Source: Lytechinus variegatus (lineage: Eukaryota). Taken from it: DNA of 64,000 nucleotides. A program made the position numbers and the translations under genes. Positions 1,955 to 62,975 of the stretch are shown here, one piece after another. The notes under the pieces are model-generated. The model did not search any database. It was not told the origin of the DNA and was given only the letters and a program-made list of their open reading frames with translations. The DNA lies in NCBI RefSeq assembly GCF_018143015.1, contig NC_054742.1:73577736-73641735 (forward strand), in the 5' to 3' direction. Positions within the stretch are counted from its first letter, which is position 1; every line of letters starts with the position of its first letter.

Positions 1955-2173
1955 GTAAATATTCAGATATTTATATTATATTGAATGACTCAGAATGGGA
2001 TACCAGTGATGTTCCACAAGTTAGGGCCAATAATGCAAGACTCATAGACGATGGCAATATTACATTATTTGATTGTTGTCATTATTTTTGATAGCCTAGA
2101 TCGGGATACTGGTGATATTCCACGAGTAAGGGCCATTATTGCATGAATTATACATGAGTGCAATATTATTGTT

Positions 2174-2317
2174 ATCATCATCTTCATTATCTTCATTATC
2201 ATATTTATCATCATCATTGTTTCATCATCACCTTCATCATCATCTTCATCATTACCATCACCATCATCTTCATCATTACCATCACCATCTTCATCATCAC
2301 CACCATCATCATCATCG
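2174..2317. repeat. imperfect (ATC)n / (CATCAT) microsatellite, intronic
   Basis: The sequence shows direct runs of catcatcttcattatc...caccatcatcatcatc. Confidence 0.85.
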
Positions 2318-2355
2318 TTTATTATCTCAATCTTCCATTTATTTTACGCCTGCAG

Positions 2356-2463
2356 GCCACTGCATCCAACGATTCTACCATTAAACTATGGGACATGAAA
2401 ACAGGAAAGGTCAAATCTCACCTCAAAGGTCATCAGGCAGCTGTCTACTCGGTTGCCTTCTCT
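2356..2463 (+). CDS. WD40-repeat protein, exon
   Basis: Acceptor cgcctgcag ends at 2355 and donor GTAAGT starts at 2464. It encodes ATASNDSTIKLWDMKTGKVKSHLKGHQAAVYSVAFS, a canonical WD40 signature (SxDxTIKLWD ... GH). Phase is 0 to 0. Confidence 0.75.
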
Positions 2464-2864
2464 GTAAGTTATTAACTTTTATATATTCCTCTTCAATCTC
2501 TGTATTTATACCTTTTTTTTTCTTCAAAGTTTGAAATATGCAGATGTGTAGCTTTTGAGCCCTGTGCAGTTGTGTTGTGTTATAATGTACATGTTTAACC
2601 CTGATTCGAAATTCCATTGTAACTTATAATTGGATGATTCCATAAGTTTCGCTTCGATGGCAATTGCGCTGCTATAACTTTCACACTCTGATTGAATGAC
2701 TAACTTCAACCCTGGGTTTAACACTATACCCTATTCTTAACCTATCATAAGACCCATTTGCAACCATATTCCAAACCCTACATCTTTGATTAAGTAAAGT
2801 CCAGAGCAGTTGTCGCAGGAGCAATTGTGTGTCACCGTTGGGTAGGTACTTTCCAATATTCGAT

Positions 2865-3150
2865 GTGGAACGTTGTGGCCCAGTGTCTCCGGACTTTGAG
2901 TCAGAGGGTTGTGGGTTCGAATCCCAGCCATGGCGTAATTTCCTTTGGCAAGAAATTTATCCACATTGTGCTGCACTCGACCCAGGTGAGGTGAATGGGT
3001 ACCTGGTAGGAAGAAATTCCTTGAATACTCAAGCACCCGATCAAGGTAGCCATGCTAAAGCTGGGGTAAAAATGATAGCAGGGCCCGCTGGGAGAACAGT
3101 TTTGGGAACTGAAGCGGCTACCCTGGGTAAATTTGCCTTTATTATTATAA
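2865..3150 (+). mobile_element. tRNA-derived SINE, copy 1 (intronic, sense to the WD40 gene)
   Basis: It has a tRNA-like head (gtggcccagtg...gggttcgaatcccagccatggcg) and a conserved body (tttatccacattgtgctgcactcgacccaggtgaggtgaatgggtacc). The tail is A/T-rich (attattataa). Confidence 0.8.
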
Positions 3151-3929
3151 ACCTCTCTAAATTACCATTTTAGGGAGACATGAAAGGCGGTCTTTTTGAG
3201 CAGGTGGACTATATGGACAGGTTCCTTTTACATATGTTTCAATGGGAGAGATTATATAAGGGAAACCAAACTTGTGGTCTTTAAAGATGAGTAGTCCTTC
3301 TGTACAGGTGGTTTGCTGAAGTAGGTTTGACTGTTAACGGGTAGATTTGAAAAATTCATTGATGTCTTGCTATGACTCCTCGTAACACTTCTCCAATGCC
3401 TGAATGCAGCATTAAATCCTTGTTCAAACAAAAAAGATGGAGCTTAGCAAGACGAGTCTACCTGATCATACATGTTAATATTCAATTTTGAAGTCTGATG
3501 GGGCATTGCAAGGAACTTGCGATCAATTGCAAGTATATTTTGGTCTCTAATTGAATCATAAGTTTTGAAATTAATTGTGAATTTGCCAATGATTTCTTAT
3601 CTGTTTGTGAAACAAGCAGTGTAATCGAATTTGCTACAGTTGAAATTGATCTATCGATTGTTAGCTTGCAACAGAATATTTGCAATTGATTGCTAGTATT
3701 CTCTTACAACACCCCCTAAAAAATGATTCAAACTTGCCCATATCAGCTTTGACAAGTGAAATCTGCCATTTAGGATAGGCTTTAACAGGCTGCTTGTATT
3801 TTCATTTTCCAGGGCTATTTTGTTCATTTTGGGGGACATCACCCCGAACCCCCATGCAATTGTTTTCCCTGGTCTGAAGTAGCCATCGGGGAAGTAACCA
3901 TATTTTTACCTTTGATGAATCTTTTGCAG

Positions 3930-4080
3930 CATGGGTGTGTTGTATCGGGATGCCTGGATGCATCGGTCAAGGTCTGGTCTCATCGTGGTGTGGAGATCAC
4001 CACTCTCTATGGTCACTCACAGAAGGTCAACAAGGTGGACATTCATATACCAGAAAGAGGAAGCAATGTTCCTGCAATAG
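3930..4080 (+). CDS. WD40-repeat protein, exon
   Basis: Acceptor cttttgcag ends at 3929 and donor GTGAGT starts at 4081. It encodes HGCVVSGCLDASVKVWSHRGVEITTLYGHSQKVNKVDIHIPERGSNVPAI, which continues the previous blade (VYSVAFS|HGCVVSG..VKVW). The exon ends in phase 1. Confidence 0.7.
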
Positions 4081-4636
4081 GTGAGTGAAATGGTTTTGTT
4101 GATGTGTTTGAAGAGCAAGTCCAAGCAAAAATTTGACTTGAACGAAAAGAGAAAAATTAAAACTCGCCTAATGCTGGAAATCACACCAAAAATCAGAATT
4201 TCAGAGCTACCAACCAGTAGGTTTGGGGTATATTTAGTACAGTTTCTTTTTCTTTCTTTTTTTACAAAATTGTAATTTATTGCGTAAAATCATCTCTATG
4301 TTTCTATTTCATAAAACTTACACAAATATGGTTATTGGATCAATGTATTTTCAAGGTGACTTGTTTTTTTTAACATCATTTTGTTTAAACCAGGGTGAGA
4401 TATACATATGTTTTAAATGTTGGGTTTTTTTCTCATCTACAAGAGCAGTGCTCATTTTAGCTTGCATGCAGCTTGAGCGCCGCTATGAGCACGCGTCACA
4501 CATTTTATTATGAAATACAGTTTTTTGGGGGAAAAATAGAGATTTTTTTTATCACTTAATACAATTTTTCATTCCCAGAAGTTGACAGGTCTGGAATTTG
4601 AGTAAGGTTGAGCTATGACTATTCAATTTCATGGAA

Positions 4637-5668
4637 TTGATGATGATGAGGAAGGTGATGATGGTGGTGGTGGTGGTGGGGTGGTGGTGATGATGGTGGT
4701 GATGCTGATGATGGTGGTGGTGGGGTTGGTGGTGGTGGATGGTGGTAATGATGGTGGTGGTGGTGGGGGTGGTGGTGGTGGTGGTGGTGATGGTGGTGAT
4801 GATGATGATGGTGGTGGTGGTGGGGGGTGGTGGTGGTGGTGGTGGTGATGATGGTGGTGGTGGGGTGGTGGTGGTGGTGGTGATGATGGTGGTGGTGGTG
4901 GTGGGGTGGTGGTGATGATGATGGTGGTGGTGGTGGTGGTGGTGGTGTGGTGGTGGGGTGTGGTGATGATGATGGTGGTGGTGGTGGGGGTGGTGGTGGT
5001 GGTGGTGGTGGTGATGATGGTGGTGGTGGTGGGGGTGGTGGTGGTGGTGGTGGTGGTGATGATGGTGGTGGTGGTGTGGTGGTGGTGGTGGTGGTGATGA
5101 TGGTGGTGGTGGGGTGGTTGTGGTGGTGATGATGGTGGTGGTGGTGGTGGGGGGGGGGTGGTGGTGATGATGATGGTGGTGGTGGTGGTGATGATGATGG
5201 TGGTGGTGGGGGGTGGTGGTGGTGGTGGTGGTGGTGATGATGGTGGTGGTGGGGGTGGTGTGGTGGTGGTGGTGGTGATGATGGTGGTGGTGGGGTGGTG
5301 GTGATGATGATGGTGGTGGTGGTGGGGGTGGTGGTGGTGTGGTGGTGGTGATGATGGTGGTGGTGGGGGTGGTGTGGTGGTGGTGATGGTGGTGGTGATG
5401 GTGGTGGTGATGGGGGTGGTGGTGATGATGATGATGGTGGTGGTGGTGGGGGTGGTGGTGTTGGTGGTGGTGATGGTGGTGATGATGATGATGGTGGTGG
5501 TGGTGGGGTGGTGGTGGTGGTGGTGGTGGTGATGATGGTGGTGGTGGTGGTGGTGGTGATGATGGTGGTGGTGGGGGTGTGGTGATGATGATGGTGGTGA
5601 TGATGATGATGGTGGTGGTGGTGGTGGTGGTGGTGATGATGGTGGTGATGATGATGAGGAGGATGACA
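4637..5668. repeat. about 1-kb (GGT)n/(GAT)n minisatellite, intronic
   Basis: There is about 1 kb of GGT/GAT trinucleotide repeats with occasional GGGG runs. It lies in the intron between the exons at 3930..4080 and 5743..5930, so the minus-strand His/Pro/Thr ORFs are artefacts. Confidence 0.9.
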
Positions 5669-5742
5669 AGATTTATGATAATTATGAAGATTAATACGAT
5701 TGTCTAAACTTAAATAACAATGGTCTCTTCTATCACTGGTAG

Positions 5743-5930
5743 ATGTCGATAGCGATGATGAGTGGGACGACACGTCTGGAGCCAACTGGTCAGATATGAT
5801 GGCAGAAGAAGAATGGAAGAATCGTCATGAGAAGAAGAAGTTGGACAAAGATGCTAATATCAACCTGGAAGAGATAATGATTGCGTCGGCCAGTGATGAT
5901 GGTACCACACAGTTATGGAAACCCCTACAG
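5743..5930 (+). CDS. WD40-repeat protein, exon (acidic insert plus WD blade)
   Basis: Acceptor tatcactggtag ends at 5742 and donor GTTAGG starts at 5931. Entering in phase 1, it reads (D)VDSDDEWDDTSGANWSDMMAEEEWKNRHEKKKLDKDANINLEEIMIASASDDGTTQLWKPLQ, ending in the WD motif SASDDGTTQLWK. Exit phase 0 restores the frame. Confidence 0.65.
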
Positions 5931-6139
5931 GTTAGGTTCTGTGAAACCATATGTCTTCAAAATGTGTTTTTTTTTAATCTTGATTGATGAGATATGTAGC
6001 CAGTTTCTGACTTTTCAGATTTATCTCTCTTGTCTTAACTTCAATTTACACTCTTTTTATATCTTCAACTATATCCCTTTATTTCCTTCCATTATATTTA
6101 TAATTCTCAAAAATTTCAGTTTCTAAGGTTCATCCCAAT

Positions 6140-6490
6140 TTCCTGATTTTTTTTTTCTCTCTTTAGTATTATTTTTTTCATTCTTCCATTTTTTCATCTT
6201 CTTCTTGTTCCCTACTTCCTATTCCTTTCTTTTTCTCCTATCTACTCCTCTTTCTAATCCTTCCTTCTCTTTCTTTTCATCCTTTTTTTCATTTTCTTTC
6301 AATCTTTTCCTCTTCCACCTTCCCTGTCTCCTGTTTCTATTCCCTCTTCTTCTTTTCCTTCACCTCCTTCCCTTATTCTTATCAAAATTCTTTTTCCCTT
6401 TGATTGTCTTTTTCCTCTTCTCTATTTACTCCTCATTTATCTTTTCCCTTTTTTTCCACCTTAATTTCTTCTTCATTCACTTTACTTATT
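6140..6490. repeat. polypyrimidine (TC-rich) low-complexity tract
   Basis: The + strand is almost entirely T/C (ttccttctctttcttttc...) over about 350 bp and is intronic. Confidence 0.85.
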
Positions 6491-7581
6491 CTGTTTACAT
6501 TGATTAAAAATCTCCTTGCTTATTGAATCTTTTTCTCCAAGGTCTCAAATTGGGCTTCTTTAGTTGGATCTGACAAGGAGAATATCATGAATTATAATTC
6601 AGGCAATACTGTGAGTCTCTGCCTTCAAAAACACATGGCAAATTATATGTGCATGCTTACATGCGCTTGCACTCCGATATTATTTTGCCTCTCCAGGCTT
6701 GACTTGGCCATATATTTTCGAACTTGCCCAATGTTGTTAACATTTCTCAGCAATTAGCTGTTCGGAACTTGAAAATCTGTGGTTTCTAAATGTTTTCTAA
6801 TTTCTGACATCGATTTGACAAAAGATTTCTGACATGACCCAACTCGAGTATCTTCAGAACATGCTCTCCAGAGCAAATTTCATGATACTTGCCTCTTATT
6901 ACCACAGCTTTTCTTTCTTGGAGCATTGTTGTACTTAGCATGTATTTATGTGTTGTATACTGACGCTTCATGTAGGTCATTTTTCTTTAACACCTTCTGG
7001 TCTTATGGAAAGGACAGGAAATGCATCAATTTTTCATGATTTTTTTTAATCTGATATAGATTTAATGGTCATATATCATCAAATCACATGTATCAGCATC
7101 ATATCATTACAGTAACATTCATTGCATGAATGTGTTTTAGTTGCAAAGTGTGAATGCTTTTTTTTGGGGGGGGTAGGGATAAAATTACACCCATTATGTT
7201 TTCTTAAGACCACCGCACACCTCTCAACTTGTCTATGACCCAATTTTAGAACAAATAGCATTTTGCTTTTTAAAAACATGAATGAATTGAATCTTTTAAG
7301 AAAACTAAGATTGAAATTTTGGATACTTGCAAGCCTTTATTTTGGAATAAAGGCTAGATATGTTTCATATCATGGTCGGTCTTACGATTTTTATGACGTT
7401 AAGTGTTCCATGTGTCAATATTTGCATCAAATATTACATTTCATTCTAAGATTGGACCGCAGACCAATCGTAAGGTTTGCTGTGGCCTCTACATGTACAT
7501 GTATATGTAAAGTGTTCTGTGTTTGTTCAGTATTTTCTGTACAATATTATTCAACCTAATGTTTCCCTCTTGACCTTGCAG

Positions 7582-7701
7582 AGTAATGAATTGACCACGC
7601 TGATTGGTCACTCAGACCGGGTGTTGAGTGTTGCTATGGCAACCAGCGGTCAGGTGGTCACTACCTCCATGGACTGCACAGTCAAGATTTGGAAGCCCCA
7701 G
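7582..7701 (+). CDS. WD40-repeat protein, exon
   Basis: Acceptor cttgaccttgcag ends at 7581 and donor GTATGT starts at 7702. It encodes SNELTTLIGHSDRVLSVAMATSGQVVTTSMDCTVKIWKPQ (GH...D.TVKIW). Phase is 0 to 0. Confidence 0.75.
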
Positions 7702-8504
7702 GTATGTTATTCCTCAAAGCCATTTTTTTGAACAAATACATGTATTTCAAGACAATCGTCAGTTACTTACTAAATGTATTCTCTGTTGATGTATTATTCA
7801 AACATTTGTGATTAGGTGGGTATTTCATTAAGCTGTTTTTTAGTTCTGAAAGAATTTAAATGCTGGTACGAGAATAACTGAATTGAATTGAGAAAGCTTA
7901 GTGTTATTTTGTGTTCAATTTTAGTTAATTACATGCTTAGAAATCATATTGAGCAGCAAAATTTCTTTTTTAATTGTTGATCCACGTTGTCAGTTGATTT
8001 CGCGTGAAATCAAACAAAAAATAATCATATTCCAATGATAAATTTAGGAAGATGGCCGGGAAAACCTATATTGTTTATTATTAACCGAATCAGACCTCTG
8101 AGCAGGGCAACTTTGATACATTGTTGCCTGCTTAGACCGGATCAAATGGCCGGTCAATAAATTTCCAATTGTTTATCCATGGGCCCAATTTATTGCCCGC
8201 TCAGGAACGTCAATGAGAAAATGCGTGGAAATGTAGCGGGCAATAAGGCAGAGTTAACATCCGGTATTCTACGTGTTTTGATACGCGTCCTTAAACCATG
8301 CAGTGGTAATACGTCACAATGTTTAACAAGTTGAGACACCGCCGGATACTGCGTCCCCAGTCCAGGGACGCGTCATTTCAACTACATCACAATGTTAAAA
8401 TTCAGTGGCCCAGTCTGCTCTACATAACAAAATAGATTCCCATTCTTAAAATCTGAAATATCTCAATTTTAAAGATTTTTGCTTTAGATGTCTTATTTGG
8501 TTAA

Positions 8505-8635
8505 TAATAGCAATATTGACTGGCCTGGGGGCGAAAGGACATATATTGCCCTCACTAAATTGATGTCACCCTCATCTGCAACTCGGGCAATATATGTTGT
8601 ATCACCCCGAGGCCAGTCAATATTGCTTTATTGTT
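8505..8635. mobile_element. small palindromic MITE (~130 bp), intronic
   Basis: The inverted repeat is taatagcaatattgactggcctgggggcgaaaggacatatattgccc ... gggcaatatatgttgtatcaccccgaggccagtcaatattgctttatt. Confidence 0.6.
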
Positions 8636-8680
8636 TTTATTTATTCTTATTATAAATCACCTTCTTTTCTTTTCGAACAG

Positions 8681-8775
8681 CTTTCTCCCGACCTCGTCCA
8701 CGTAGGAGCCCACGATGCCGAGGTATCAGCCGTTGCCATGTCAACCAAGACTAACTTTGCCGTCACTGCAAGCAG
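8681..8775 (+). CDS. WD40-repeat protein, exon
   Basis: Acceptor ttttcttttcgaacag ends at 8680 and donor GTCAGT starts at 8776. It encodes LSPDLVHVGAHDAEVSAVAMSTKTNFAVTAS(R). The exon ends in phase 2. Confidence 0.65.
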
Positions 8776-9553
8776 GTCAGTGCCCTGTTTCATAAAGCAT
8801 TGTGATCCATCACAAATTTTTTCAGCCAATCACATGTCATCATTTCACAAGCTTATAGAATTTCATGTTTTAACTTTTATTTATAATTTTTTTGTATAGC
8901 ATGGTTTGGAAAATATTGCAAATCGATGGCTTTGAAAACCATTATTCAGTGAAATAGTCTGTAACTAGTGTAACTTCATATTTTTATGGAGATTATGCCT
9001 TTACATGCTTCTGTTTTGAAGTACGTCCTTACCTTTCCCCGTAATCCCTCCATCCCTTGAATGCTGTGTATTATTACTAATAGTATTATTTTGATTATAT
9101 AATTTTTGTTATCAAGACAATAACTTCACTGTAGAATCAAATGATGTTCAATCCACTCATTCGTAAGTGTTGTGTGTCACAGTTGCTCTGAATAGCGTGG
9201 TCTCATAAAAGTGTATACAAATTACAAGGAGTGACTGAGTGGTCATTTTGTCCATTTAAATAACTTGTCCGTAGGAAAACTCGGGAACCATGAGAAGGAT
9301 CAACTGCAAACTATTCTCATAAGTGCATATTGGAATGACAATGATTTGGGGTGCAGGTGATTTAACTATACTTGGATTTCTTCCCAAATCCATTATCATT
9401 TATCATTTAAAATAAAATTCTAAAAAAAATGTATTTACATCTCATAATTCTCCAGTGCTGTTTACAATAAATTGTGGCAGCTCTTGCTTCTGTCCCTCAT
9501 TTATATATTTATCTAACATCAACTTTTTTGTTTGTGACATCAGGAATGGCAGT

Positions 9554-9625
9554 GCTTGTCTATGGAAGGTGAATGGGTCTAACAAGGGAGAAGGCCAATC
9601 AATGACACTCCTTCATTCATGGATG
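9554..9625 (+). CDS. WD40-repeat protein, exon
   Basis: Acceptor tttgtgacatcag ends at 9553 and donor GTAAGT starts at 9626. Entering in phase 2 it completes R and reads NGSACLWKVNGSNKGEGQSMTLLHSWM. Joined to the previous exon it gives AVTASRNGSACLWK, a WD blade end. Exit phase is 0. Confidence 0.65.
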
Positions 9626-10376
9626 GTAAGTAAAACAAAATATTATCCTTTCATTTACCATCTTACTGTTGTTGTTTTATCCAAAAATTACATATCTTCC
9701 AGCTGTTCCAATGAAATAGGAATATTTTTATTTTTGGTACATGTAAAGGTAAATTGCCATTTTAATCTTTTTTTTTTTTTGCTATTCTGTGTGATTTTTA
9801 TGTAGCATTGAATGGGAAATTCACGAATGTTCATAATTCTGGAAAGTTTTTAGTAATTTGTTTCCATTTCTTGGCATTCAGGATTTGCAGGTATGAGTTG
9901 ATCAGAGTTACCTTAACAGGCATGATATTCTCCTGATTGTTAATCGGATATCTGATTTTTTTTCTTTTTTCCTGTTCATAGTCAATGACCACAATGTTTT
10001 TGTGATTTCATTTTGTAATAAACGATCATGTTTTGAAAAACAAACAATTTGTTGGGGTTGAATTATTTTCGGTCGATGTATAGCTGTGAGAGATACAGTC
10101 ATATGTTTTATGAAGGGACATTAACATGAGCGGGTGAGAAGCTGGTACCATGGTTTGTGTAGAAATGCATTGTGTGTGTGCGCTCAGGGGTGTGTTGGAT
10201 TTTATTTTGGCCGAATTGTAACAATGAAGGTACGCCTCTAGGCCTCGTAGTATATATTGTCGCTTGTATTGGTACTGAATTGATTGGAATAAAATAGTTT
10301 GAATTTTCATTGAAGCACAGTCCATTATGACATGGGTTTAACTCATTCCATATTCCTCACCCTCTGTCCAAACCAG

Positions 10377-10510
10377 GCTGCGGAGTGCGCCATCAATGCA
10401 GTTTGCTTCATTGGAAAGCATATGACCCTCGCCTTGGGTAAGGATGATGGCATCATCACACTTTGGAAGATACAAGAACTCAAGGACAAACCCGGATCAT
10501 ACACAACCTT
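10377..10510 (+). CDS. WD40-repeat protein, exon
   Basis: Acceptor tctgtccaaaccag ends at 10376 and donor GTAAGT starts at 10511. It encodes AAECAINAVCFIGKHMTLALGKDDGIITLWKIQELKDKPGSYTT. The exon ends in phase 2. Confidence 0.65.
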
Positions 10511-10597
10511 GTAAGTAATCCATGGTCTCGGAAACAAGCCAACTTCTAGGTTCTATCTATGGTGACATGACATTTGCTCCTGGCATAATTTCATCTT

Positions 10598-10979
10598 ATA
10601 CCCCTTTCATAAACCCAATTTTGCGGCTAATAGCAGCATAATTTGGTCGTAAAATTGGAGGAGGACCAGAGTTATCCGCATTATTTTGATGCTGCTATTA
10701 TCCGCATAATAGCAGCATCGGGACAAGATTTTGAGTTTATGAATGCATTTCCAAATAATGCGGATAATTGCCATGGTGCAGTCACAAGGTCACCCTTTTC
10801 CAACACAACCGCATCGGAGGGGGCGTGTCCAGTTGTCATGACGATTATCCGCCCTTTTCAGGACGGGCGCTCGTAAAAATTATGCGGCTTATTTTCGGAG
10901 TTTGTGAACGCAATTTTTATTGAATTATCCGCATTACTCTTAGGCGGCTAATTGGAGGATGGGTTTATGAAAGGGGTAT
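10598..10979. mobile_element. MITE family B (~380 bp, TIR ATACCCCTTTCATAAACC), copy 1, intronic
   Basis: The 18-bp TIRs are atacccctttcataaacc ... ggtttatgaaaggggtat. It carries internal ttatccgcat subrepeats. Confidence 0.8.
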
Positions 10980-11464
10980 TAGATGTAGGGTTAGGGTTGT
11001 AATAGGGTTTTATGTAAGGTGTCTGGGTAGGGTTAAGTGTTAAACCCAGAGTGAAAGTTTGTTCCTTTAGTGTGTGTAATTTAGAGCAGAGCAATTGTTA
11101 CGGACCACAACATCTATTTATGAACAGATATACGTGTATTTGTACTTGTATTTATAACCCACGTGGCTGATTACAATCAGTTACTAGTACTGGATTTATT
11201 ACCACAATTATTACTGGATTTGAATTTATATTTATGTTATGCTCATACATTTGTATATGATATAATTTCAATTCAGGTGAGTTTTTCAATGACCACTGTG
11301 TGTCATGGGGACCTTCCTGATTTTTTTTTTTTTTTGGGGGGGGGGAGTTCACACATGACAAATGGTTTATTATTTTGTTGACTGTTTCTGCTTCATTTGA
11401 GCATTGATGTATTTTTAGAAGGAATGACAGCCCAAACTTATCTTTTTTTTTTTTTTTTGCTCAG

Positions 11465-11632
11465 GCAAGGGAACAATCGTTTCTTGAATGTGTACTCCTT
11501 CACCTCCATGTCGAGCCCGGTGACCTGTCTCAGGTACGATGATGCTCAAGACATCCTGTACGTCGGCACGTGGAGCTCGGTTATTACCCTAAGGGGTTTC
11601 ACCTCCAATAAGATCAAACAGAATGCAAAGGG
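11465..11632 (+). CDS. WD40-repeat protein, exon
   Basis: Acceptor a long T-run then gctcag ends at 11464 and donor GTAAGT starts at 11633. Entering in phase 2 it reads (L)QGNNRFLNVYSFTSMSSPVTCLRYDDAQDILYVGTWSSVITLRGFTSNKIKQNAK. DAQDILYVGTWSS is WD-like. The exon ends in phase 2. Confidence 0.6.
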
Positions 11633-11660
11633 GTAAGTAATGCAAGGATGAAAGAATATC

Positions 11661-26464: not shown

Positions 26465-27375
26465 TTTCCAGTTCGTCCAATTGCCAACTCATCTACTACC
26501 ATTTGGTCTATCATCAGTTCGTCTACTCACCACACTGTCTATTTTCATTTAGTCTAATACCATTCCGTCTAATAACTAGTTGGTCCAATAGCCATTTAGT
26601 CCATATTCCATTTGGTCTAATTAAACTAAAGTGTTAACTGTGAAACTGAATGAAAAGAAGATGGGTATTAGACCAAGCTGGAGATATTTATATCTCAATA
26701 AATAGTAAAATTCACAAAGCAAAAATTTTTTATCAAAATCGGATATCAAATAACAAAGTTATTGAATTCTAAAGATTTGCATTATTCCAGTGAAACAGTT
26801 CGAGGCAAATCTTCATGAATATTCATTAGGTGGGCTGATGATGTCATATCCCCACTTGTTCTTTTGTATTTTATTATATCATATATGAAATTAGGTTTTT
26901 TCAAAATTTTCTACCAAGAACTAAAATCATTGGATTGACAACTGGTTAAGTGCTTTAGTTATTTATTGCTGCAACTTATTTCATCATAATGGAGACACAA
27001 CATTTACACGTGTATGAAAAAAATGAAACAATTATGATTTCATGTAATAACATAAGAAAAAGGAAAGTGGGAATATGACATCATCAGCACACCTAATGAA
27101 TACTCATGACGATGTGCATATAACTGTTTTCACAAAATATTGATAAACTTAAAAATGCAATAACTTCTTTTTTTTATATCCGATTTTGATGAAATTTTCT
27201 GTATTGTGCTCTGTGAATTTTACTCTTTTTTTTAGATATGAATATTTTCAGCCCGGACCATCCCTTTAAACGAAATGTTGATTGACAGAATGGCATTAGA
27301 CTAAATGAAGGTAGACCATGTGTGTGAGTGGACGAGTTGGCAGTGGACGAATTGGAAATTTACCAATTTGAGTGC
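26465..27375. mobile_element. foldback element with subterminal tandem ~20-bp repeats (catttggtctaat-type) enclosing a family A-like core
   Basis: Outer inverted repeats are cgtccaattgccaactcatc (about 26472) and gacgagttggcagtggacgaattgg (about 27330). Arrays of ccatttggtctaa-like subrepeats sit on both sides. The core 26690..27240 is homologous to family A arms (atccgattttgatgaaattttc...). Confidence 0.55.
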
Positions 27376-37289: not shown

Positions 37290-37375
37290 ATTTGACCAGT
37301 GTATTGGCTCAGTTGGTAAGAGCATCTGTCTCACAAACGGGAGGTTGGGGGTTCGAACCCTGGCTGCGTCAGACC
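37290..37375 (+). pseudogene. tRNA-like sequence (tRNA pseudogene or head of a different tRNA-derived SINE)
   Basis: ggctcagttggtaagagca is D-arm-like. ggttgggggttcgaaccctgg is T-arm-like. The candidate anticodon loop ctCACaa would correspond to tRNA-Val-like CAC. The 5' and 3' ends (gtattgg / cgtcaga) do not pair into an acceptor stem. Confidence 0.35.
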
Positions 37376-42600: not shown

Positions 42601-43448
42601 AACTACGACATATCGTATCTCTATGGAAATTTGCAAAATGTCCTTTGAAAACAAAGGAGAACACACCAAATTGTCAAGAAATCAGTAAATTTATGAATAT
42701 ACATCATATCTAGAAAAAAATTGAACAAACATGCATTTTATATGTTGACTTTGCTGGCTTTCTCAAACACTTTGTAAGATGGTGCCCTGAATTCATGGTC
42801 CTGATAAGATTTAAAATCATTTGAAAGGGTGGGCAGATGAATAATTGAAACACAGGATAGTTTTCTCACAATTCATTTCCTACTCATCTTCCACAAATGG
42901 GGACAGCCTCTGTGTGGGTTGAGGTATCATTGGATTGATCATGGAAATATCAATGGATAATACAATCATTTCTTGCAGACGTTAGGAAGTACTTTATAGC
43001 CTCAATACGTCCTGTTTCAAAATCAAGGAAAGGGGGCGGTTCTTTGGTCACCATTAAAGACAGATTCAGAATGATCTATTTATGTACCTCTAATTTCATT
43101 TGACTTCTTTGGGATTGGTAAGAAGGCAGTGACAATTTCAGTTTCAAGTGGTCAGTGATGAAGTAAAGAGCAACGCAGAATATTTTTAAGAAAAACTAAT
43201 GATTATAAATAATAATAATAGGCATTTATATTGTGCCATGTATCTAGAAATAATCTATTGCGAGGCACATTGTTATTGTTAACTAGACTCTGGAATTTAA
43301 AATTAAGGATCAGAGAACTAGTGTGAAATGTGTAAATGAAACTCACAATTTTGTTCTTCTCTGACTTACAAGATGAAGTATTCTTGATTTGGAGTATTCA
43401 GTCTTTATCCTACTCTTAATTCTAATTAGATTCCACAACATTTCTCTA

Positions 43449-43742
43449 TGTGGAACGTTGTGGCCCAGTGGAATTGTCTTCTGACTTTGAAACAGAGGGT
43501 CGTGGGCTCAAATCCCAGCCATGGCGTAATTTCCTTCAGCAAGAAATTTATCCACATTGTGCTGCACTCAACCCAGGTGAGGTGAATGGTTACCCGGTAG
43601 GAAGAAATTCCTTGAATGCTTGAGCACCTTGGCAGCCCAGCTGAAGCCGGGGTTATAGTAATAGCAGGGCCCGCTGGAGAACAGTTTCAAAACTGAAGTG
43701 GCTTCCCTGGGTTAATATACCTATATTATTATTATATTATTA
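43449..43742 (+). mobile_element. tRNA-derived SINE, copy 3
   Basis: It is a full-length copy collinear with copy 1 and has an (ATT)n-like tail. Confidence 0.8.
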
Positions 43743-49821: not shown

Positions 49822-52289
49822 GGTGCGTTTATTCGACACTTTTTTACCCTAGAATCATGATTAGAATCATGATTCAAATCACGATTCTGCAGAATCACGA
49901 TTGCGTTTAGTCGAAAGTGGAAATAAACGTCTTTCAAATCACAAACATGAAACACGGAAAAAGGGGCGTTTGGAAAGACGTTTCTGTAGAATCACGAACG
50001 AAAAGGGTCGTATAAACGATATCGTGATTTGAATCATGATTCTATGACGTCATTGTGTCGTGCTTCTTCCGGGTTCGACTCAAAGGCGCGCGCAGTGTTT
50101 CGTGCAGGTTAATTTTCGTGTAGCAGATTGCCAGTGTACTAGTACCGGTATATGCCAATTGTCATGTGCATTTAGGCATTTAGGATTATCATTCTGTGTA
50201 TTGTACCCCGGGGTTGTACTGTAGCGTCATTTGTATATTTCACTCAGGGTGACCAGATTTCACAAAATGAAATACGGGACAATTGACAAACGAAGATCAA
50301 CAAAGAAGCCCACACAAAGTGTGGGCTTCTGAGAATCCATAGCATAATTTTAAGACTTTTGAAAAAAAATATAAAGAATTAGAAGGGAAGGTGAACGAAA
50401 GAATGAAGGAGAGAAAGAAAGATGATTGGGAAGGAAAGAAAATAAAGGAAAACAGAAAAAATAACAGAAAGTTAGAATAAAAGGATGAAAGAAATAATAA
50501 AAGAGATAAAAAAAGGTTTCCGTCATTCTTTGAAATGAATATAGAAAGAAAGGAAGGGAAGATTAATAAATGTCTCGCAAAATAAAGGAGACAATTAAAG
50601 GGGGAAAGGTGAGAAAAAGAAGGAGGAAAGAAAGAATGAAGGAAATAAACATGTTTCCTTCATTCTTTGAAAGAAAGAAAGAAAGAAAATAAAAATAAGG
50701 GAAAAGAATAAGAAGGGGAAAATGAAGAAAGGAATAAAGAATGGAAAGGAAGAATGAAGGGGAAGAGAACGAAAAAATAGAAAATAATGGAAGGAGAGAA
50801 AGAACGAAAAGAAACAGGAGACGAAGAGAGAAGGAAGCCAAGGTAATTATAAGGAAAGAAAGAATGAAGGAAATAAAAAAGTATATTGGATAAAGAAGGA
50901 AAGAAAGAAAAATGAACAGAGAGAGAGAGAGAAAAGAAAATGTCGAGGAAAGAAAGATAGGAAATAAAGATAGATGGAACAAAAAAGGGCAAGCAGAAAG
51001 GATAGGGTATATAATTATAAAATAAAGATAAGGGAAAAGTTCAAACTTCAAGTAAACAAAAAATCCAATCATCTAATAAAAATCATAACTTTATTTGGTG
51101 TTTTTTTAAATGTATTTTTAAAATTTTAAACATAAAATGTTTTAGAAATGAATAAAATTTCAAAGTGAAACATATTGTCAAACTTAAAAATTAGATGAAA
51201 CATCGCGGCATCGTGCACACCAAGACTCAAAACGAAAGCTGAAACAACTAGATCTATGAAAAGTCAATAACATTTTCCTCCGATTACATCTCCAAATCAT
51301 TAAACTGAGAATCCATAGTATAATTTTAAGAATTTCCCGCCGATTTTGTGATTATTTTGGTGGAAAAAACTGTAAATCATGTGAGGTGTTTGCACCATTG
51401 AGAATTTGCTTCGATCCTCCATGCCTAGCTAGTAGCCTGCCACACACAGGCAGGAGGCCAGTTCGTTTGCAATGTATTAGCAAGAGATCATCGCAGAACT
51501 TGCAAAAGTTTACAGTTATCGATTTAATTGTTGTCCCTGCTTCGTCAGCTGTTGGTTATTTAATGAAAATTCGTCACTTTTAAATGTATTAACTACATTT
51601 TGTTCAATATTCTGAAATACGGGACAATCCCGGGAAATACGGGACGTCTGGTCACTGTTTTCATCAATACTGTCTTCAAGTTCCAAAGGCACAAATTGGA
51701 CTGACGACGAACTCAGGGCTCTGCTTGTGCTTTGGGCTCAGCCTGAAGCACAAGCATCCCTTACCGGGATTCATAGAAATATAAGACGATCTACGAGTCC
51801 CTTTCAGCGGCGCTTGCGAGGGAGGGATTTCAACGGAGATGTGGCACCGCCTGTCGAGACAAAATTAACAGAATTCGTGCCCAGTACTACGGCTACCGAA
51901 CACCATTTTTGATGAACCGACAAGACTGAATACAAGTAAACAAAAACAATACGAGGTACAATACACGGAATTCTGGAAGTAAAAGATTTATTTTTCGGAA
52001 GCCGAGTTGCACTTGCACAAACGATCGCGCGTTAGCTCCGGTGGCAGCAAAAATCTAGCAGCCGACGTGAAGTTAGAAACACGCGCGAAAATGTTGACCT
52101 ATACTTCCTGGGTCAAACTGCGCACTGTGATGCGCACTGGATCGGCCCGAATTCAGGGAGAAACAGCGTTAGAAAGATGGTCGTATAAACGCTGATTCTG
52201 TCGGATCGTGATTCATGTTGCTGTTTTGAATCATGATTCAAATCGTGATTCCAATCATGATTCTGGGTTGAGGTCGCATAAACGCAGCC
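49822..52289. mobile_element. ~2.5-kb composite TIR element (nested inverted repeats, GA satellite, Myb/SANT-like ORF remnant)
   Basis: Outer TIRs are gggtgcgtttattcgac...gaatcatgattcaaatcacgattc (49822) versus gaatcatgattcaaatcgtgattccaatcatgattc...gtcgcataaacgcagcc (52289). Inner inverted pair is gtgaccagatttcacaaaatgaaatacgggac (about 50246) versus gaaatacgggacgtctggtcac (about 51633). The ORF remnant at 51664..51912 reads ...GTNWTDDELRALLVLWAQPEAQASLTGIHRNIRR..., a W-x-DDE-x-x-ALL-x-x-W pattern typical of Myb/SANT-like (MADF-type) domains. Confidence 0.5.
50370..51040. repeat. GA-rich (GAAAGA/GGAAG)n satellite inside the composite element
   Basis: About 670 bp is nearly pure purine on the + strand. 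It is flanked by direct repeats tgagaatccatagyataattttaaga at about 50328 and 51308. Confidence 0.85.
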
Positions 52290-52722
52290 TAGATGACACG
52301 ACATTTGCTCTTCCAAAATTTGCTTCTGCGACATTTGCTCCGGCTTTAATATCTCAGAAGGCATAGGGTTAGAGTTAAGATTGTAATTTAGTTTATAATT
52401 ATGAATAATGTAAAGATAAGGATTAGGCCTAGGGTTAATTTATTTTCGGAGTTTAGGTTTAATGTTAGACCCCCTGCTGAAAACCGATTACGCCAAACAT
52501 TGCTAACTCATTTTGATACCATACTCAAGTCAAGGAAGTCGGTTAGACTTCATGTAACCATACAATGTCTTAATTTGAAACCATGACTAGTGTCCGATCT
52601 GTCACCAACACTTGTCTTTTCTCACTTCTGTTTGTATTTGTGGTTCATGTGGCTTTATTCAGCCATCTACATATAGACACGTTCACCAGGTACAATGTAA
52701 GTGGCAGACATACCCATCCCAG

Positions 52723-53338
52723 GGCATGCTTAAAGGACAAGTCCACCCCAACAAAAACTTCATTTGAATAAATGTAGAAAACTTCAACAGGGGTAATACT
52801 GAAAATTTCATCAAAATCAGATTAAAAATAAGAAAATTTATGGCATTTTAAAGTTTCGCTTATTGTCAACAAAATAGTTATATGAACGAGCCAGTTACAT
52901 CCAAATGAGAGAGTTGATGACATCACTCACTCACTATTTCTTTTGTATTTTATTATATGAAATATGAAATACTTTTATTTTCTCATCATTGTCATGTGAA
53001 ATAAGGTTTCATTCCTCCCTGAACACATGGAATTCCATTATTTTAACATTTTGTGCTTCAGGCAAGGAGGTCCTAATCGTCAAATTCGTAAAAAATTGAA
53101 ATATTGTATAATTCAAACAAAAAACAAAAGAAATAGTGAGTGAGTGACATCATCGACTCTCTCATTTGGATGTAACTGGCTCGCTCATATAACTATTTTG
53201 TTGAAAATAAGCGAAACTTTGAAATGTCATAAATTTCTTATTTTCAATCTGATTTTGATGAAATTTTCAGTATTATGCTTGTTGAATTTTTCTACATTTA
53301 TTCAAAACAACATTTTTCTGAGGTGGACTTGACCTTTA
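52723..53338. mobile_element. foldback MITE family A, copy 4
   Basis: Ends are AAGGACAAGTCCACC ... GGTGGACTTGACCTT, with flanks ttA|AAGG and CCTT|TAAgg. Confidence 0.75.
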
Positions 53339-53436
53339 AGGGGTCTCCAGGTCCAAAGTACCGGTACTGTTACCCTGTCCATAGGTAGATGGCTGTGCAG
53401 ACCCTTTTACCCAAGGAACATAGTGCAGCCTATAGC

Positions 53437-54618
53437 CCGGGGGGGGGGCACTTTCATTGATGAGTGGATACTGTGCGTGACCATGGGGTCTCGAAAAGCA
53501 CCCTAAACAAGTATTTTCCATATTCTGAAAATGTACCCCTTTACACAAGTATTGGCCTGTGAAACCCTACCCTTAAGAAGTATTGGAAACAAAACGATAA
53601 ACAAGTACAGCAATATTTTGATTGTTGTATGTCACAGACTTTGGTCGTCGGTTTTACCTTTACCTACATTATTGGGTTTAGTACGGCCCCACCTCCCACA
53701 CCTCGCGCAAAAAGTACATCCTTTATAAACCATTTTAGTCTTTTATACACTCTAATTTGACCCTTATTACTTAATTAGCTTTCCTAGTGAAATAGATGCT
53801 CTTTTTCTCATTATTTTAGTGTTTTTGGCACCCTCATTATGTTACGTACGTAAAGTGCCCTATCTTGAAAAAGACATCCTTTTAGAATACATGTATTTTT
53901 GGTTGCGCATGGTATCCACTCGTCAATACGAGCCCCCCCCCCCCCCCCACCTGCCCTGCCTAAAGCCCCTTGCAGTGACTTTTGCACACTACGGCCCTCT
54001 CGCTCAAGACAACAAGTTGTATTTGTGCTAGTCTTGTGTCAAGGCCCACTGGTTGGTACTGGTTGTGTCCCGGGGGGGCCACTTACATTGACGAGTGGAT
54101 ACCATGCGCGACCAAAAAAACACGTAAAAAGGATGTCTTTTTCACGATAGGGCACGTTACGTACGTAACGTGATAAGGGTGTCAAAAACACAAAAATAAT
54201 GAAAAAAGGGTATCGATTTCGCTAGGAAAATTACGTGTTTAGGGTCAAATTTGCGAGGATGATAAAACAAAATTAAAATGTTTTATTAAGGATGTCCTTT
54301 TTGCGCCAACACTTCGTGTTTAGAGTCCGATTTGCACGAGGTGTAGAAGGTGGGGTCCTACTAAACCAAATAAGGTAAAGCCGACGACCGAAGGACCCGT
54401 AACAATAAAACGTTCCTGTACTTGTTTAGGGGTTCATTCAGGGAATATTTGCCAAGAGTATCGTTTTGTTTCCAATACTTGTTAAGGGTAGGGTTTCACA
54501 CGCCCATACTTGTTAAGGGGTGCATTTTCAGAATATGGAAATTACGTGTTTAGGGTGCTTTTCGAGACCCCATGGTCGCGCATGGTATCCACTCGTGAAT
54601 GGAAGTGGCCCCCCCGGG
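53437..54618. mobile_element. ~1.2-kb nested foldback (long inverted repeat) centred on GTTACGTACGTAAC
   Basis: The left arm (cactttcattgatgagtggatactgtgcgtgaccatggggtctcgaaaagcaccctaaacaagtattttccatattctgaaaatg...) is the reverse complement of the right arm (...cattttcagaatatggaaattacgtgtttagggtgcttttcgagaccccatggtcgcgcatggtatccactcgtgaatggaagtg). An inner inverted pair is atgttacgtacgtaaagtgccctatcttgaaaaagacatcc / ggatgtctttttcacgatagggcacgttacgtacgtaacgtg. C/G homopolymers sit at the arm bases. Confidence 0.7.
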
Positions 54619-55707
54619 GATTCAGTCAGGTTCTGCACCTCAGATTAGGTCATAGACCAGCAGATGACCTTATGTGCTTCAAAACTTGATCCTGGGGGGT
54701 AGTCAGTCTTGGGAAAAGCATGAATAGACACCCAGGACACTATGCGATGCGATTGCACTAAGATCCGATCGCAACAAAGTCGCAGAGTGTGCGCCAACCT
54801 GCAAATGCCTTGCAGGTGTGAGACTGAGTCTTCTGCGAGTTTGATTCTTTGAGCCAGTCAGGTTTGTCCTAGACAGTGACGTCACGACCAATCAGTCGCA
54901 CTGCTGCTGCATAGACAACATAGGCCTACACGTAAAGACGAGATGCCATGGAGATGAAATTGCGTTGGGTCGCATCGTATGCGCTGGGCTTACAAGTGAC
55001 TAATTGTAACCTCTCTTTTGTGAATACTGTCTAATGTAACCTGCGTGGATCCACAGTCCATTGTAATGTGAATTGGATTAGTATGACTTTGTGTTTCGTA
55101 ATCCAGGGACAGACTATGATGCAGCTTTGTATGTTGTGCATCTTCACCATGTAAAGACATGCCTTGATCTGTAACCTGTGGTTATGGCCTGCCCCCCTGA
55201 GCAGACCAATATACGTGACATAATATGGTACTGTTCAGCAATCCCTGCTTTACTTTAATCCTGGTTTGGTGAATCATAGCACTCAAATCTGTGTTCTCAG
55301 TACATCAAATCTCTTCAAACTTGGATAGGTCCCTGCCAAAGTTCTGGAAATTAAGGAGAAGAAAAATTCTTTCAGGGAACTCTGGCAGAATTTATATATG
55401 TTTTTTGTCCCTGGATTGGTTTGAAACCTTTTTTTTCAGAGAAATATTTCAAATCTTTGCATAAGAAGGCCAAAGCGTCCTTTGAGTTTGGTCCTTCACA
55501 TTTAGCAAGTGGTTTTTTTTTCCTTTTCTCTACAAATTAACATTAAAGCTTGTGAGTTCTACCAGAGCTTTTCAAAAGACTGACTCCAATTTTTCCCCAA
55601 AAGATAATCCATTTGCTCAGACTGTGAAAACAATATGATTTTAATGAGATCCTCACCCCTTCTCTCTTAATAGGGAGCATTCCATGATACAAATAATTAG
55701 TAAATTT

Positions 55708-56986: not shown

Positions 56987-57506
56987 AAGGTCAAGTCGGG
57001 TGTGAAATAAGAAAGTTATGACATTTTAAAGTTTTGCTTGTTTTTCAGAAAAAAGTGATATATGCACAACTCGAATGAGACAGTCGATGATGCCCTTCAC
57101 TCACTATTTCTTTTGTTTTTTATTGTTTGAATTATACAATATCTAATTTCTTATAGATTTGACAATAAGGACCAACTTGACTGAATCAAATATAGTATTA
57201 AACAATGCTGATTCTACATGTTCAGGGAGGGATTAATAGTTGTTTCACTTGACAATGAGGAGAAAAATATAAAAATAGAATATTCCCTATTTCAAATAAT
57301 AAAACAGTGAGTGGATGACATCAGTCTCCTCATTTGCATACCCACCAGGATATTCTAATAACTGTTCTTTTTAATTAAGCAAAACTTTAGAATGTCATAA
57401 CTTTCTTATTATACATCCGATTTTGATGAAATTTTCAGTGTTATGCTTGTTGGATTTTTCTCTTTTTATTCAAATCAACTTTTTGTTGGGGTGGACTTGT
57501 CCTTTA
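56987..57506. mobile_element. foldback MITE family A, copy 5
   Basis: Ends are AAGGTCAAGTCGGG ... GGGTGGACTTGTCCTT|TAAtaa. Confidence 0.7.
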
Positions 57507-57727
57507 ATAACAGAGCAAATATCAGGCAATCAATGTTGTAGGTTGGGAACTATTGGGTCCCCCTCTTATATTGCTTATATCGTTTTGGCTAACATCCCTT
57601 TTCCCTTTTTAATTCCTGTCACTGTTTTTTGATTATCTGTCTTGTGTTTTAACAAAAAAAATTTAGTACTGATGAGAACAATTATCAGCAGTTGCGGCAA
57701 TCTATCTAGAAATCTGAGGTGCACTGT

Positions 57728-60056: not shown

Positions 60057-62820
60057 TTTTTACAGTGTAGGCCTATTTGGAAAAAATGATACATCAAGAA
60101 TAGCAATAACGGAATGAAGTAAATATTCATTGTAAATTGGATATACCTAAAGAAACATCTTTAAGAGGAAATGATAAGGTCATATAGTGAAATATAAAAT
60201 GGCATGTCCAAAAAGCAGATATTCACCTTCACCTTGCATAACTAACATTGATGATTGATTCCTGGAAAAAAAAAACAGAAGTGAATTGAGTTTTTTATGA
60301 ATTATTAAATTCATTTGGTCAAGTGCTATACTTTTTCATTCATTCTGTCCATCATTTATTTAAAAAAAAAAACAGGCCTCGGAGTGATCAGAATAATGTC
60401 TTCTATATTTTAGAGTGTTTTTTTTCTCTAAATTCCACTCTACAAAGTACGAAATCAATTTTTTCAATGCGGTCACTCACAGGCCCGAAGAATAGAAAGC
60501 TATATTTAGAATTTTCAGGCTAAAAAGAGAACGATCAAATTAGTTTTATCCTACTCTCTGTTGGAGAGAAATAATCATCAAATGAAAGCCTATTTGCCAT
60601 TAATTTATTATTTCCACAATTATTCAGTATTTGGTCAAATATTTTCCGATTTATTAAGTCTAGACCAACCCCCAGCCGGAGAGGAAATACTAAGTAGCTT
60701 TTCCCTTCCAATGACCAAACTGCAATCCCTTCCTTTATAAAAAAGGGTAATATTTTTCATTTAATTTTAAACCTAAATAAAAAAAATTGTTTGAAAGGTA
60801 GGAGAAAAATCCACACAAGTTGCTTTAAAAATTTGACCGGTTTCAGCTTGCCCAGTGCCTGTTGCGGTCCCTCAAAGGCGCCTGCTGGTAGTTCTAGTAA
60901 TATGTTGATTATTGTATTATATACTAAGATTTGTCTTTTTTCTGTATTAAATTTTATTGCCCTGCCTTTTCTTGTTAAAGGCAAGTGTCCTGGTGATATA
61001 TTGTGCAGATTTGCAAATAAAGTGATGATATAAAAAAAATGGGTTTAAGTTGATAAGACCCATACTGTTAAATCAGTTCAATATCAAGAATCAAATATTT
61101 CCAACAACATATTAAAGTAAGTGGCATATGAAGTTACCGTGATGATTAATCTTTTCTGATAGCTTGTGTTAAATTAAGATAGTTGTAAACAAGTGCAAAA
61201 TTTAATCTGTAGCTGAAAGTTTGTGAATGCAATGCAATTATTTATTTATTTATCTATTCATTCATTTATTTTGTTTGTTCATTTGTTCCTTTGGTCGTTC
61301 TTCCTTCGTTCGTTCATTTATTTATTAATTTATAGTGGTGAATGTGAATGAGATAATGTATAGCAACTGTGCTTATAGACAAGTAGGCAATACTTCAATC
61401 TACTTAATTATAAAGAAAAGTAGATCTATTTGAAAATTAGGGAAAAAATAAAAGCTTGTTGTTGACAAGATATGCTTTTCACACTGCATTTCCTTAACCC
61501 CATCCATACTATCTTTTGTTTTGTTTCACACTGTCTTTCTTAACCCCATAGTATTTGCTTAGCCGGAGTTAACGCCTTAACCCCTGACTATTGCACAGCT
61601 CATGAATATTGATGATTAATGTGTAATTTTGACTTTTGTGAATGGCTAATGCTTAGCCCCACTTTTCCTTGGCCTGGTTTCGTTTCACACTGCATCTCTT
61701 AGCACTGCAATTTTTGTGCTAGCACCACAATATGCTGGCTAACCCTGCTTTTTTACAGAGCCAGATAGTACCGTACTATTTACCGTGCTAGCCTACTTTG
61801 CTGAAACATAGTATGAAATCAAAGTGGGCTAAGCTGAACCCTGGGAAATTGGTGGAAAATATGTGCAGTGTGAAAAGCATATATGATTGTTATGTAGCCT
61901 CTACAGTCTTTACCACAAACAAAGATCTCAAATATTTATACGGTCACTCACCCTTGTTTGAAACTAGATATATCAGTTCTATCAAACGAAGAAGCTTAAT
62001 CTCTTATCCTCTAAGCTGTTTTTTGTGTATTATGAGATTGTTGTTTTGTGTAGGTCAGATTACCAATATCAATATTGTCTTTAAATAGTAGTATCATTCT
62101 ATCAGTTGAATGCTTTTAGTCATAGGATTTAATCCCCTGCGATTGTCCCCACTCTGTATTTGAGGTTGATGCAACTCTGAATGATTTTGTTCATAATTTT
62201 GATGAAATATTCAACATTTTGCATGGCAAATTTAACTCTTTTCATTAAATTATTTTTAGTCCATATAGTACTTTTTTGTAATGTTCAGCATGGAGTAACC
62301 TTTTTCAAAATAAAAATTTCAGTGAATTATATTTTTTCCATTGTTTTGAAAGATGTTAGAAAAATGTTGCTATTGTGAGGCAGACCTAGTCATCCAGGGG
62401 AACATTTCCGAAAAGAACATGTCAGGTGATTTATCCGATAAAATTTTTTTTTTCATCTGGCGTTAACATAGGAACTGTGCTTCTCAGCCAATAAAAATCA
62501 TGGAAAGATGTCAGATCTGATAACTTTTCGGGTGAAAAATTTGGATGATACCCCCCTCCCCACCCCCGGCCAGGCTGATTTTTTTTATAAAGAGTTTTGA
62601 CTGTGGTAACTTTACCATAATGGCAACTCTCATGGTACCAGGGCTTAGCAGTCAATCACCGTCAACATCTCAATGTAACAAAGTTACAACAATGGGGGAG
62701 GGGCCGAAAGGGGGTCGAGAAGTTGAAGACCTTATTTTTTTTGCTTGTTAATTTTCTTTAGCGACGCGATTTTGCCCCCCCCCCCCCCCGCCTCGTCTTT
62801 CATTATGAAGGGCGTGGTTC

Positions 62821-62975
62821 GATTCCAAGCCATGGCGTGTTTTCCTTCAGCAAGAAATCCACACTGTGCTGCACTCAACCCAGGTGAGGTAAATGGGTAC
62901 CGGCAGGAAGTGATTCCTCAAAAAGCTTTCCGCACCAGAATTGGTAGTCCAGCTTAGCCGGGGTATTATAGGAGC
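62821..62975 (+). mobile_element. tRNA-derived SINE, 5'-truncated copy
   Basis: Matching sequence is ggttcgattccaagccatggcg...caagaaatccacactgtgctgcactcaacccaggtgaggtaaatgggtacc. Confidence 0.65.

Follow-up and report, generated by a model that had tools for sequence, protein, structure and literature searches.

Sea urchin foldback elements are known as TU. The foldback architecture comprises one pair of ends, modular TIRs that hold tandem arrays, and a middle domain, with duplications of 8–10 bp in the element Tetris (PMC4079207). Hairpins can also form where two cognate TEs lie next to each other as an inverted pair, giving proto-miRNA or siRNA loci (PMC3086885), and the passage cited from PMC1784062 describes a human miRNA family that is derived from a MITE. 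On the stability of such structures, the passages cited from PMC10164571 state that the instability of inverted repeats declines with spacer length and with divergence, and that widely spaced repeats with ≤25% heterology stay active solely where the DNA is single-stranded over a long stretch.

The locus described here (52723–54618) is non-coding and lies within a window of 64 kb, the whole stretch of DNA that was analysed, ~40 kb downstream of the exons of a TEP1-like gene. It is probably an ordinary cluster of three transposon relics, one belonging to a family that we call A and two to a family that we call B. The window has a G+C content of 36.9% and contains microsatellite-like tracts and SINE-like repeats, and an Rfam search of its whole length at the gathering threshold returned a SINE-like tRNA match at 37305. 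The TEP1-like WD40 gene contains introns (split exons at ~0.9–13 kb, + strand), and the best database proteins are just 37–38% identical to it; the split WD40 exons identify the window as eukaryotic chromosomal DNA. No long ORFs of ordinary composition were found in the 64-kb window, and no transposase gene in it lies near the repeat locus.

The upstream part of the locus is a copy of family A, with the following features.

52730–52733, no strand: TTAA at the left flank of family A, a putative target-site duplication that abuts the element end.
52734–53335, + strand: family A foldback MITE, 602 bp, non-coding, with termini AGGACAAGTCCACC and GGTGGACTTGACCT.
53336–53339, no strand: TTAA at the right flank of family A, abutting the element end.

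The arms of this copy, about 225 nt long, comprise segments of 121 nt (93%) and 110 nt (87%) and enclose a loop of 161 nt. Compared with its own reverse complement, the interval 52729–53340 scores 544 bits, and its predicted DNA fold reaches −206 kcal/mol as against −56 ± 5 kcal/mol for shuffled sequences (z = −31). The terminal 10 nt inside the TTAA are complementary at 9/10 positions. Across the five copies compared, the 5′ flank is TTAA in every case and the 3′ flank is TTAA in three and TCAA in two, while outside the TTAA the flanks are unconserved. Written with its flanking target, the family A end is TTAA-AGGNCAAGTCCACC. Transposons of the piggyBac and Kolobok types are reported to target TTAA, and piggyBac termini typically begin with CCC, whereas the termini of family A (AGGNCAAGTCC) lack an initial CCC.

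Family A is present in the 64-kb window as four full copies (including 52734–53335) and one fragment. The other full copies, at 111–708, 22106–22691 (−) and 57005–57507 (−), and the fragment at 26853–27224 are 76–77% identical to the copy at 52734–53335. A further full, TTAA-flanked copy (79% identity) was reached via one ORF from the translated-ORF search with family A and lies in an 846-bp ENA contig (L019) with unrelated surroundings. A metagenome scan with a family A 21-mer returned 14 loci with matches of only 21–48 bp, none of them accompanied by family B, and no Pfam domain was found in family A at 52734–53335. Given its TIRs, its TTAA flanks and its multiple copies in unrelated surroundings, family A is a dispersed, multi-copy, TTAA-flanked MITE; its dispersal in the window and elsewhere marks the region as TE-rich and non-coding. 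An earlier note on this DNA had placed a family A MITE at the upstream edge of the locus. The self-complementary, multi-copy MITE stands, with a start at 52734, inside the TTAA at 52730–52733, in place of 52723.

The downstream part of the locus consists of two copies of family B separated by a spacer.

53436–53948, + strand: B1, the apparently older copy of family B, running from L-end to R-end.
53949–54068, no strand: spacer between B1 and B2, 120 bp, unique, holding the symmetry axis.
54069–54618, − strand: B2, the apparently younger copy of family B, reversed relative to B1.

B1 is 510–513 bp in length and B2 is 550 bp. All four termini of these copies consist of a G run followed by a common 36-nt core, CCACTTNCATTGACGAGTGGATACCATGCGCGACCA, past which the L-type ends continue with TGGGGTCTCGAAAAGCACCCTAAACA and the R-type ends with AAAAAWACAYGTA...AAAAGGATGTCT. 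Along the + strand the ends are ordered L–R (B1), spacer, R–L (B2), which is a tail-to-tail arrangement. Since the common core gives way to end-specific sequences in this L–R ... R–L order, each B arm is a complete polar unit with its own two ends. The 46-bp terminus of the family can be given as CCCG(n)CCACTTNCATTGACGAGTGGATACCATGCGCGACCA, and its end sequence is also written CCCG(n)CCACTTNCATTGACGAGTGG. The TIRs of B1 span about 53436–53484 and 53900–53948, ending in G10 and C16, respectively, and those of B2 span 54069–54114 and 54573–54618 (CCCG7CCACTT... / ...AAGTGGC7GGG). The homopolymer runs themselves lie at 53439–53448 (G10), 53933–53948 (C16), 54072–54078 (G7) and 54609–54615 (C7), so that C or G runs are present at 4/4 arm junctions, as the earlier note had described.

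When 53425–53960 was compared with the reverse complement of 54055–54635, the two were collinear throughout and their likeness halted exactly at the element ends. This cut-off holds on the inner as well as the outer sides, and the flanks share nothing. The 120-bp spacer has no match elsewhere in the window. Flanking duplications are less distinct: for B2 the sole fit is the palindromic CCCGGG/CCGG, which is inseparable from an extension of the TIR, and the right end of B1 is C16 followed by ACC, without CCCGGG/CCGG. The outermost ends of the pair, at 53436 and 54618, both bear CCCGGG, a sequence that occurs seven times in the window, three of these at B ends.

The two arms together produce the impression of one large palindrome. 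The interval 53441–54615 matches its own reverse complement with 625 bits (E = 0) and is predicted to fold as a single long hairpin of −394 kcal/mol, with the spacer as a mostly unpaired loop. The arms of B1 and B2 align with 414 matches and 68 mismatches (85.9% identity) and with 97 gap columns in 11 indels, which lowers identity over all columns to 71.5%; the longest perfect duplex stretches between them are 31, 23, 20, 19 and 19 bp. The 1.2-kb palindrome exists because two oppositely oriented B copies are complementary along their whole length, and the impression of nesting arises because TIRs of ~46 bp make all four B ends alike. The earlier description of this interval as a near-perfect inverted repeat with a second inverted pair nested inside is therefore not upheld by an identity of 85.9%, 11 indels and a longest perfect run of 31 bp, nor by the inner pairs, which are the same two collinear arms broken by indels. 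Taken with family A, the claim of ~1.9 kb of self-complementary DNA is sound in that both blocks are real and far beyond chance, and is partly wrong in how they were described.

Long inverted repeats are known to cause assembly and library artefacts, and the palindrome could in principle derive from a chimeric or fold-back read or from a collapsed repeat. Such an error would be expected to give near-identical, directly joined arms; here the arms differ by 68 mismatches and 11 indels, a 120-bp unique spacer lies between them and the polar ends of B1 and B2 are intact. We consider this origin extremely unlikely.

Both arms contain an internal palindromic motif and a set of short sub-repeats.

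53501–53607, + strand: degenerate sub-repeats with CCCTWAACAMGTA in B1, with starts at 53501, 53539, 53570 and 53595.
53841–53853, no strand: motif GTTACGTACGTAA in B1, an imperfect palindrome, located by arm alignment.
54153–54172, no strand: perfect 20-bp palindrome CACGTTACGTACGTAACGTG in B2 (100% self-match), the counterpart of the B1 motif.
54232–54555, − strand: sub-repeats with CCCTWAACAMGTA in B2, six copies, located by motif search.

The sequence GTTACGTACGTAAC, which had been taken for the centre of the palindrome, occurs once per B copy, at 53841 (B1, imperfect) and at 54156 (B2). It is internal to each arm, and the symmetry axis of the inverted repeat falls at about 54005–54028, within the non-palindromic 120-bp spacer. 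The motif itself is confirmed as palindromic, with cacgttacgtacgtaacgtg forming the perfect 20-bp palindrome at 54153–54172. The CCCTWAACAMGTA units, searched for with a tolerance of ≤3 substitutions, are spaced about 26–38 nt apart in B1, and in B2 they lie at 54543–54555, 54507–54519, 54476–54488, 54419–54431, 54313–54325 and 54232–54244. The two largest indels between B1 and B2 (31 and 32 bp) each correspond to one additional CCCTWAACAMGTA unit in B2. Tandem Repeats Finder reported no array within the repeat locus.

Differences between the termini of the two copies bear on how the pair arose. The TIRs of B1 match at 35/45 positions (78%) and those of B2 at 44/46 (96%), a difference in complementarity with a Fisher p of 0.014, and the B2 TIRs agree with each other more closely than would be predicted from the 86% identity of the arms (binomial p = 0.023). 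As we read the alignment of the four termini, the B1 ends carry ~11 singleton substitutions and the B2 ends ~2. Because the B1 termini are far more decayed than the B2 termini, the two copies appear to differ in insertion age, which argues against both arms arising in one event. Taken together, a divergence of 14%, 11 indels and the gain or loss of sub-repeats form the pattern that would be expected of old family members, judging from the alignment of the arms.

We conclude that family B is probably a non-autonomous, MITE-like, non-coding TIR transposon and, as part of the same joint assessment, that the pair probably consists of two diverged copies from insertions of different age, which lie tail-to-tail with 120 bp between them, beside a family A MITE. 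B1 would have inserted earlier and B2 later, with a family consensus close to B2. Mobilisation would have occurred in trans, through an unseen transposase with the TIRs, and possibly also the CCCTWAACAMGTA sub-repeats, as its recognition sites. The closeness of B1 and B2 is itself in need of explanation, since by our estimate two uniform insertions would fall within about 630 bp of each other in 64 kb with a chance of ~2%. This low value suggests some non-independence, whether local hopping, target preference or a composite origin; the element may have hopped locally, or it may favour GC-rich targets such as CCCGGG.

The same estimate can be read in favour of a single event, as both B copies of the window sit at one locus. 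B1, spacer and B2 might be a single mobile unit, either Foldback-like or composite with the spacer as its middle domain, or a MITE might have been inverted and duplicated in place. The geometry fits a foldback layout of long inverted arms and a middle domain (PMC4079207), the arms hold degenerate sub-repeats of about 31 nt, and CCCGGG at both outermost ends leaves room for a palindromic duplication around the whole. A single unit is nonetheless difficult to reconcile with a full TIR pair in each arm, with inner ends as sharp as the outer ones, with arms that are just 85.9% identical and carry 11 indels, and with agreement between the B2 TIRs (96%) that exceeds the agreement between the two arms. 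The much more decayed termini of B1 are also unlike a simultaneous origin, and an inverted duplication in place would be expected to have copied some flanking DNA, none of which is common to B1 and B2. We therefore regard these single-event origins as unlikely. The earlier proposal of a Foldback-type transposon is retained insofar as the units are transposon-like, and the pair is better read as two complete TIR elements than as one Foldback. That B1, spacer and B2 now act as a functional unit, either as a dimeric foldback-type transposon moving by its outer CCCG(n) ends or as a silencing hairpin-RNA locus, is in our view very unlikely.

A contig from a related species (L018) matches the TEP1-like exons at 72–87% nucleotide identity and spans only positions 922–7704 of the window, its alignment ending ~45 kb short of the repeat locus at 52.7–54.7 kb, so that no orthologous empty site is visible for the B pair.

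Within the 64-kb window, searches with mismatch-tolerant patterns and low-stringency BLAST found no third B copy. Other pairs of G/C runs (14627–14749 and the rest) were considered as diverged B ends and rejected, their resemblance being confined to GGGGGGGGCACTT. The ORFs of B1 and B2 are ≤83 aa and have no Pfam match, and 14 concatenated stop-free translations of the two copies recovered no protein relatives from 5.8 billion protein clusters. When family A, which is abundant, was put through the same translated-ORF search as a control, a single match came back; the approach thus works, but the host lineage is barely represented and these negatives for B are weak. The same representation limits the finding that a degenerate 23-mer of the B terminus occurs zero times in metagenome and GTDB genome contigs. 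A B-terminus 17-mer matched three times in viral contigs, by chance as we read it; the flanks of one match (L001) are unrelated, and BLAST with B found no more than an 18-nt seed in L002 and L003. In the full-text literature, the TIR strings returned one 15-mer match, to an unrelated ferret paper.

Family B is possibly an uncatalogued family with unusual CCCG(n) termini. Its termini, CCC followed by a variable run of G7–G16, could represent an uncatalogued lineage with the palindromic GC-rich target CCCGGG.

If the locus were transcribed from end to end, the RNA would form long imperfect hairpins. Read-through transcription might thus yield imperfect dsRNA and, from it, endo-siRNAs or a proto-miRNA directed against A or B copies or against genes containing them. 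The predicted A and B hairpins are very stable, and the B arms hold perfect duplexes of 31, 23, 20, 19 and 19 bp. Small RNAs have been documented from MITEs and from TEs that lie side by side in inverted orientation (PMC3086885), and the passage cited from PMC1784062 lists a human miRNA family of MITE origin. Against such a role, neither an miRNA family nor any other RNA family in Rfam matches the locus, and its conservation is no greater than transposon relics would show; even at a relaxed Rfam threshold, the repeat locus returned only a meaningless weak match. On this balance, a hairpin-RNA source seems quite unlikely. A hairpin-RNA role is compatible with two separate B insertions and would be a possible consequence of them. 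A derivation of family B from a structured RNA or a SINE was also considered and rejected, as the locus has no Rfam or tRNA signal.

In practical terms, the locus can be masked as three MITE copies and has little import beyond repeat annotation. Two products would serve a repeat library: the consensus of family A with its TTAA flanks, and the 46-bp terminus of family B, CCCG(n)CCACTTNCATTGACGAGTGGATACCATGCGCGACCA. With its structure resolved, the region contains no single exotic palindrome, is a poor candidate for a cruciform and is unlikely to be an assembly error. Inverted pairs such as B1 and B2 are sensible places to seek endo-siRNA clusters; if the pair were a hairpin-RNA locus, the targets silenced by its small RNAs would be family B or a gene that contains part of a B element.

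How the locus relates to described systems depends on which feature is compared. The plant TE-derived MIR loci (PMC3086885) share the architecture of the B pair; they are defined by small RNAs and the B pair by sequence alone, and the TEP1-like WD40 gene with introns shows that the B locus is evidently not of the plant kind. Fragile inverted repeats, such as inverted Alu pairs, are a second point of likeness, as the B pair also consists of two homologous inverted repeats of ~500 bp. The locus had been presented as a cruciform-prone palindrome, which calls for near-identical arms and a very short spacer; an identity of 85.9%, 11 indels and a 120-bp spacer speak against this. Given that spacer and the 14% divergence of its arms, the B pair would be a poor candidate to extrude a cruciform from duplex DNA.

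Foldback elements (Drosophila FB, Tetris and Galileo-like elements, and sea urchin TU) resemble family A loosely, with about 75% of the element in inverted arms, and B1, spacer and B2 mimic their long TIRs and middle domain, the arms bearing short degenerate sub-repeats. Two copies lying side by side would produce the same foldback-like geometry just as well. The arrangement of ends departs from the foldback pattern, as foldback elements have one pair of ends each and in the B pair each arm has two, so that the geometry is present and the single pair of ends is not. Foldback TIRs are modular; the arms of the B pair have 4–6 degenerate, loosely spaced CCCTWAACAMGTA units. Tetris is flanked by duplications of 8–10 bp, whereas the B pair lacks such a duplication; no non-palindromic duplication flanks B1–spacer–B2, and no second such unit was found in the window.

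MITEs are among the closest comparisons. The TIRs of family B differ from those of MITEs in ending in variable G/C runs (7–16 nt) preceded by CCC, and family B is seen only as the two copies here. Its sub-repeats are of a type that often provides extra transposase-binding sites, as described for Galileo (PMC4079207). Families A and B are, like MITEs, <650 bp and non-coding, with TIRs that have discrete ends, and family A is in addition multi-copy, dispersed and flanked by TTAA.

The copy of family A, a TTAA-flanked foldback MITE, is itself flanked by the arms of a 27-nt inverted repeat (81%), which lie ~30-45 bp off either side, at 52660-52686 (beginning CAGCCATCTAC) and 53369-53395 (ending GTAGATGGCTG). 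The 11-mers of these arms (CAGCCATCTAC and GTAGATGGCTG) each occur once within the window. One possibility is that the copy landed within a different small palindromic element; another is that the flanking repeat is a chance match. Some 800 bp upstream of the copy lies a further feature, on the plus strand:

51700-51930, +, Myb/SANT-like DNA-binding domain (Pfam Myb_DNA-bind_4), split by one frameshift

When frame 2 (ending in NWTDDELRALLVLWAQPEAQASLTGIHRNI) is joined to frame 1 (KTIYESLSAALAREGFQRRCGTACRDKINRIRAQYY), the translation matches Myb_DNA-bind_4 with E = 1.7e-9 and 38.4 bits, the cut-off for this family being 27 bits. This stretch is probably a pseudogene or a transposon-derived fragment.

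Outside the window, the family A core ACTGAAAATTTCATCAAAATC was found in several JGI metagenome contigs (L015 at 2655-2712; L004-L014 around 21-mer matches). Similarity around the core spans at most 48 nt, at 88%, and these contigs bear no other resemblance to family A. The matches may come from elements in other eukaryotes that are distantly related to the MITE, or they may have arisen by chance in AT-rich DNA.

Other repeats and low-complexity tracts lie elsewhere in the window:

2740-3170, 17536-17784, 43429-43686, 62727-62954, SINE-like repeat
4555-5824, 11549-12229, long, imperfect trinucleotide-type microsatellite tracts
7166, 11336, 29389, 34338, 28402, 33001, 33419, 62775, examples of G/C runs

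Translation of the SINE-like copies gives similar peptides at several sites (e.g., ...ISSYRVPIHLTWV.CSTMWI.FLLKEI.PWLGFEPTT), and a single weak tRNA-like match, at the Rfam threshold, falls at 37305-37362. The repeat is probably a tRNA-derived SINE family. On the minus strand, the microsatellite tracts read as spurious ORFs 200-400 aa long, in which His, Pro, Thr, Ser, and Ile are abundant. Homopolymer runs of G or C of at least 7 bases number 20 in 64 kb, versus ~1 expected by our estimate from base composition, and four have the shape T(n)G(n) or C(n)A(n). The excess and the form of the runs point to a genome in which repeat families that end in homopolymers, or carry them as tails, are common.

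The window also contains candidate exons of a protein-coding gene:

~820-13000, +, nine or more short candidate exons with WD40 repeats, from a gene resembling TEP1 (telomerase protein component 1)

The top database proteins reach only 37-38% identity. In an 11.5-kb ENA contig (L018, sample ERZ26222911), presumably from a related species, the exons are collinear with those of the window, at 72-87% nucleotide identity.
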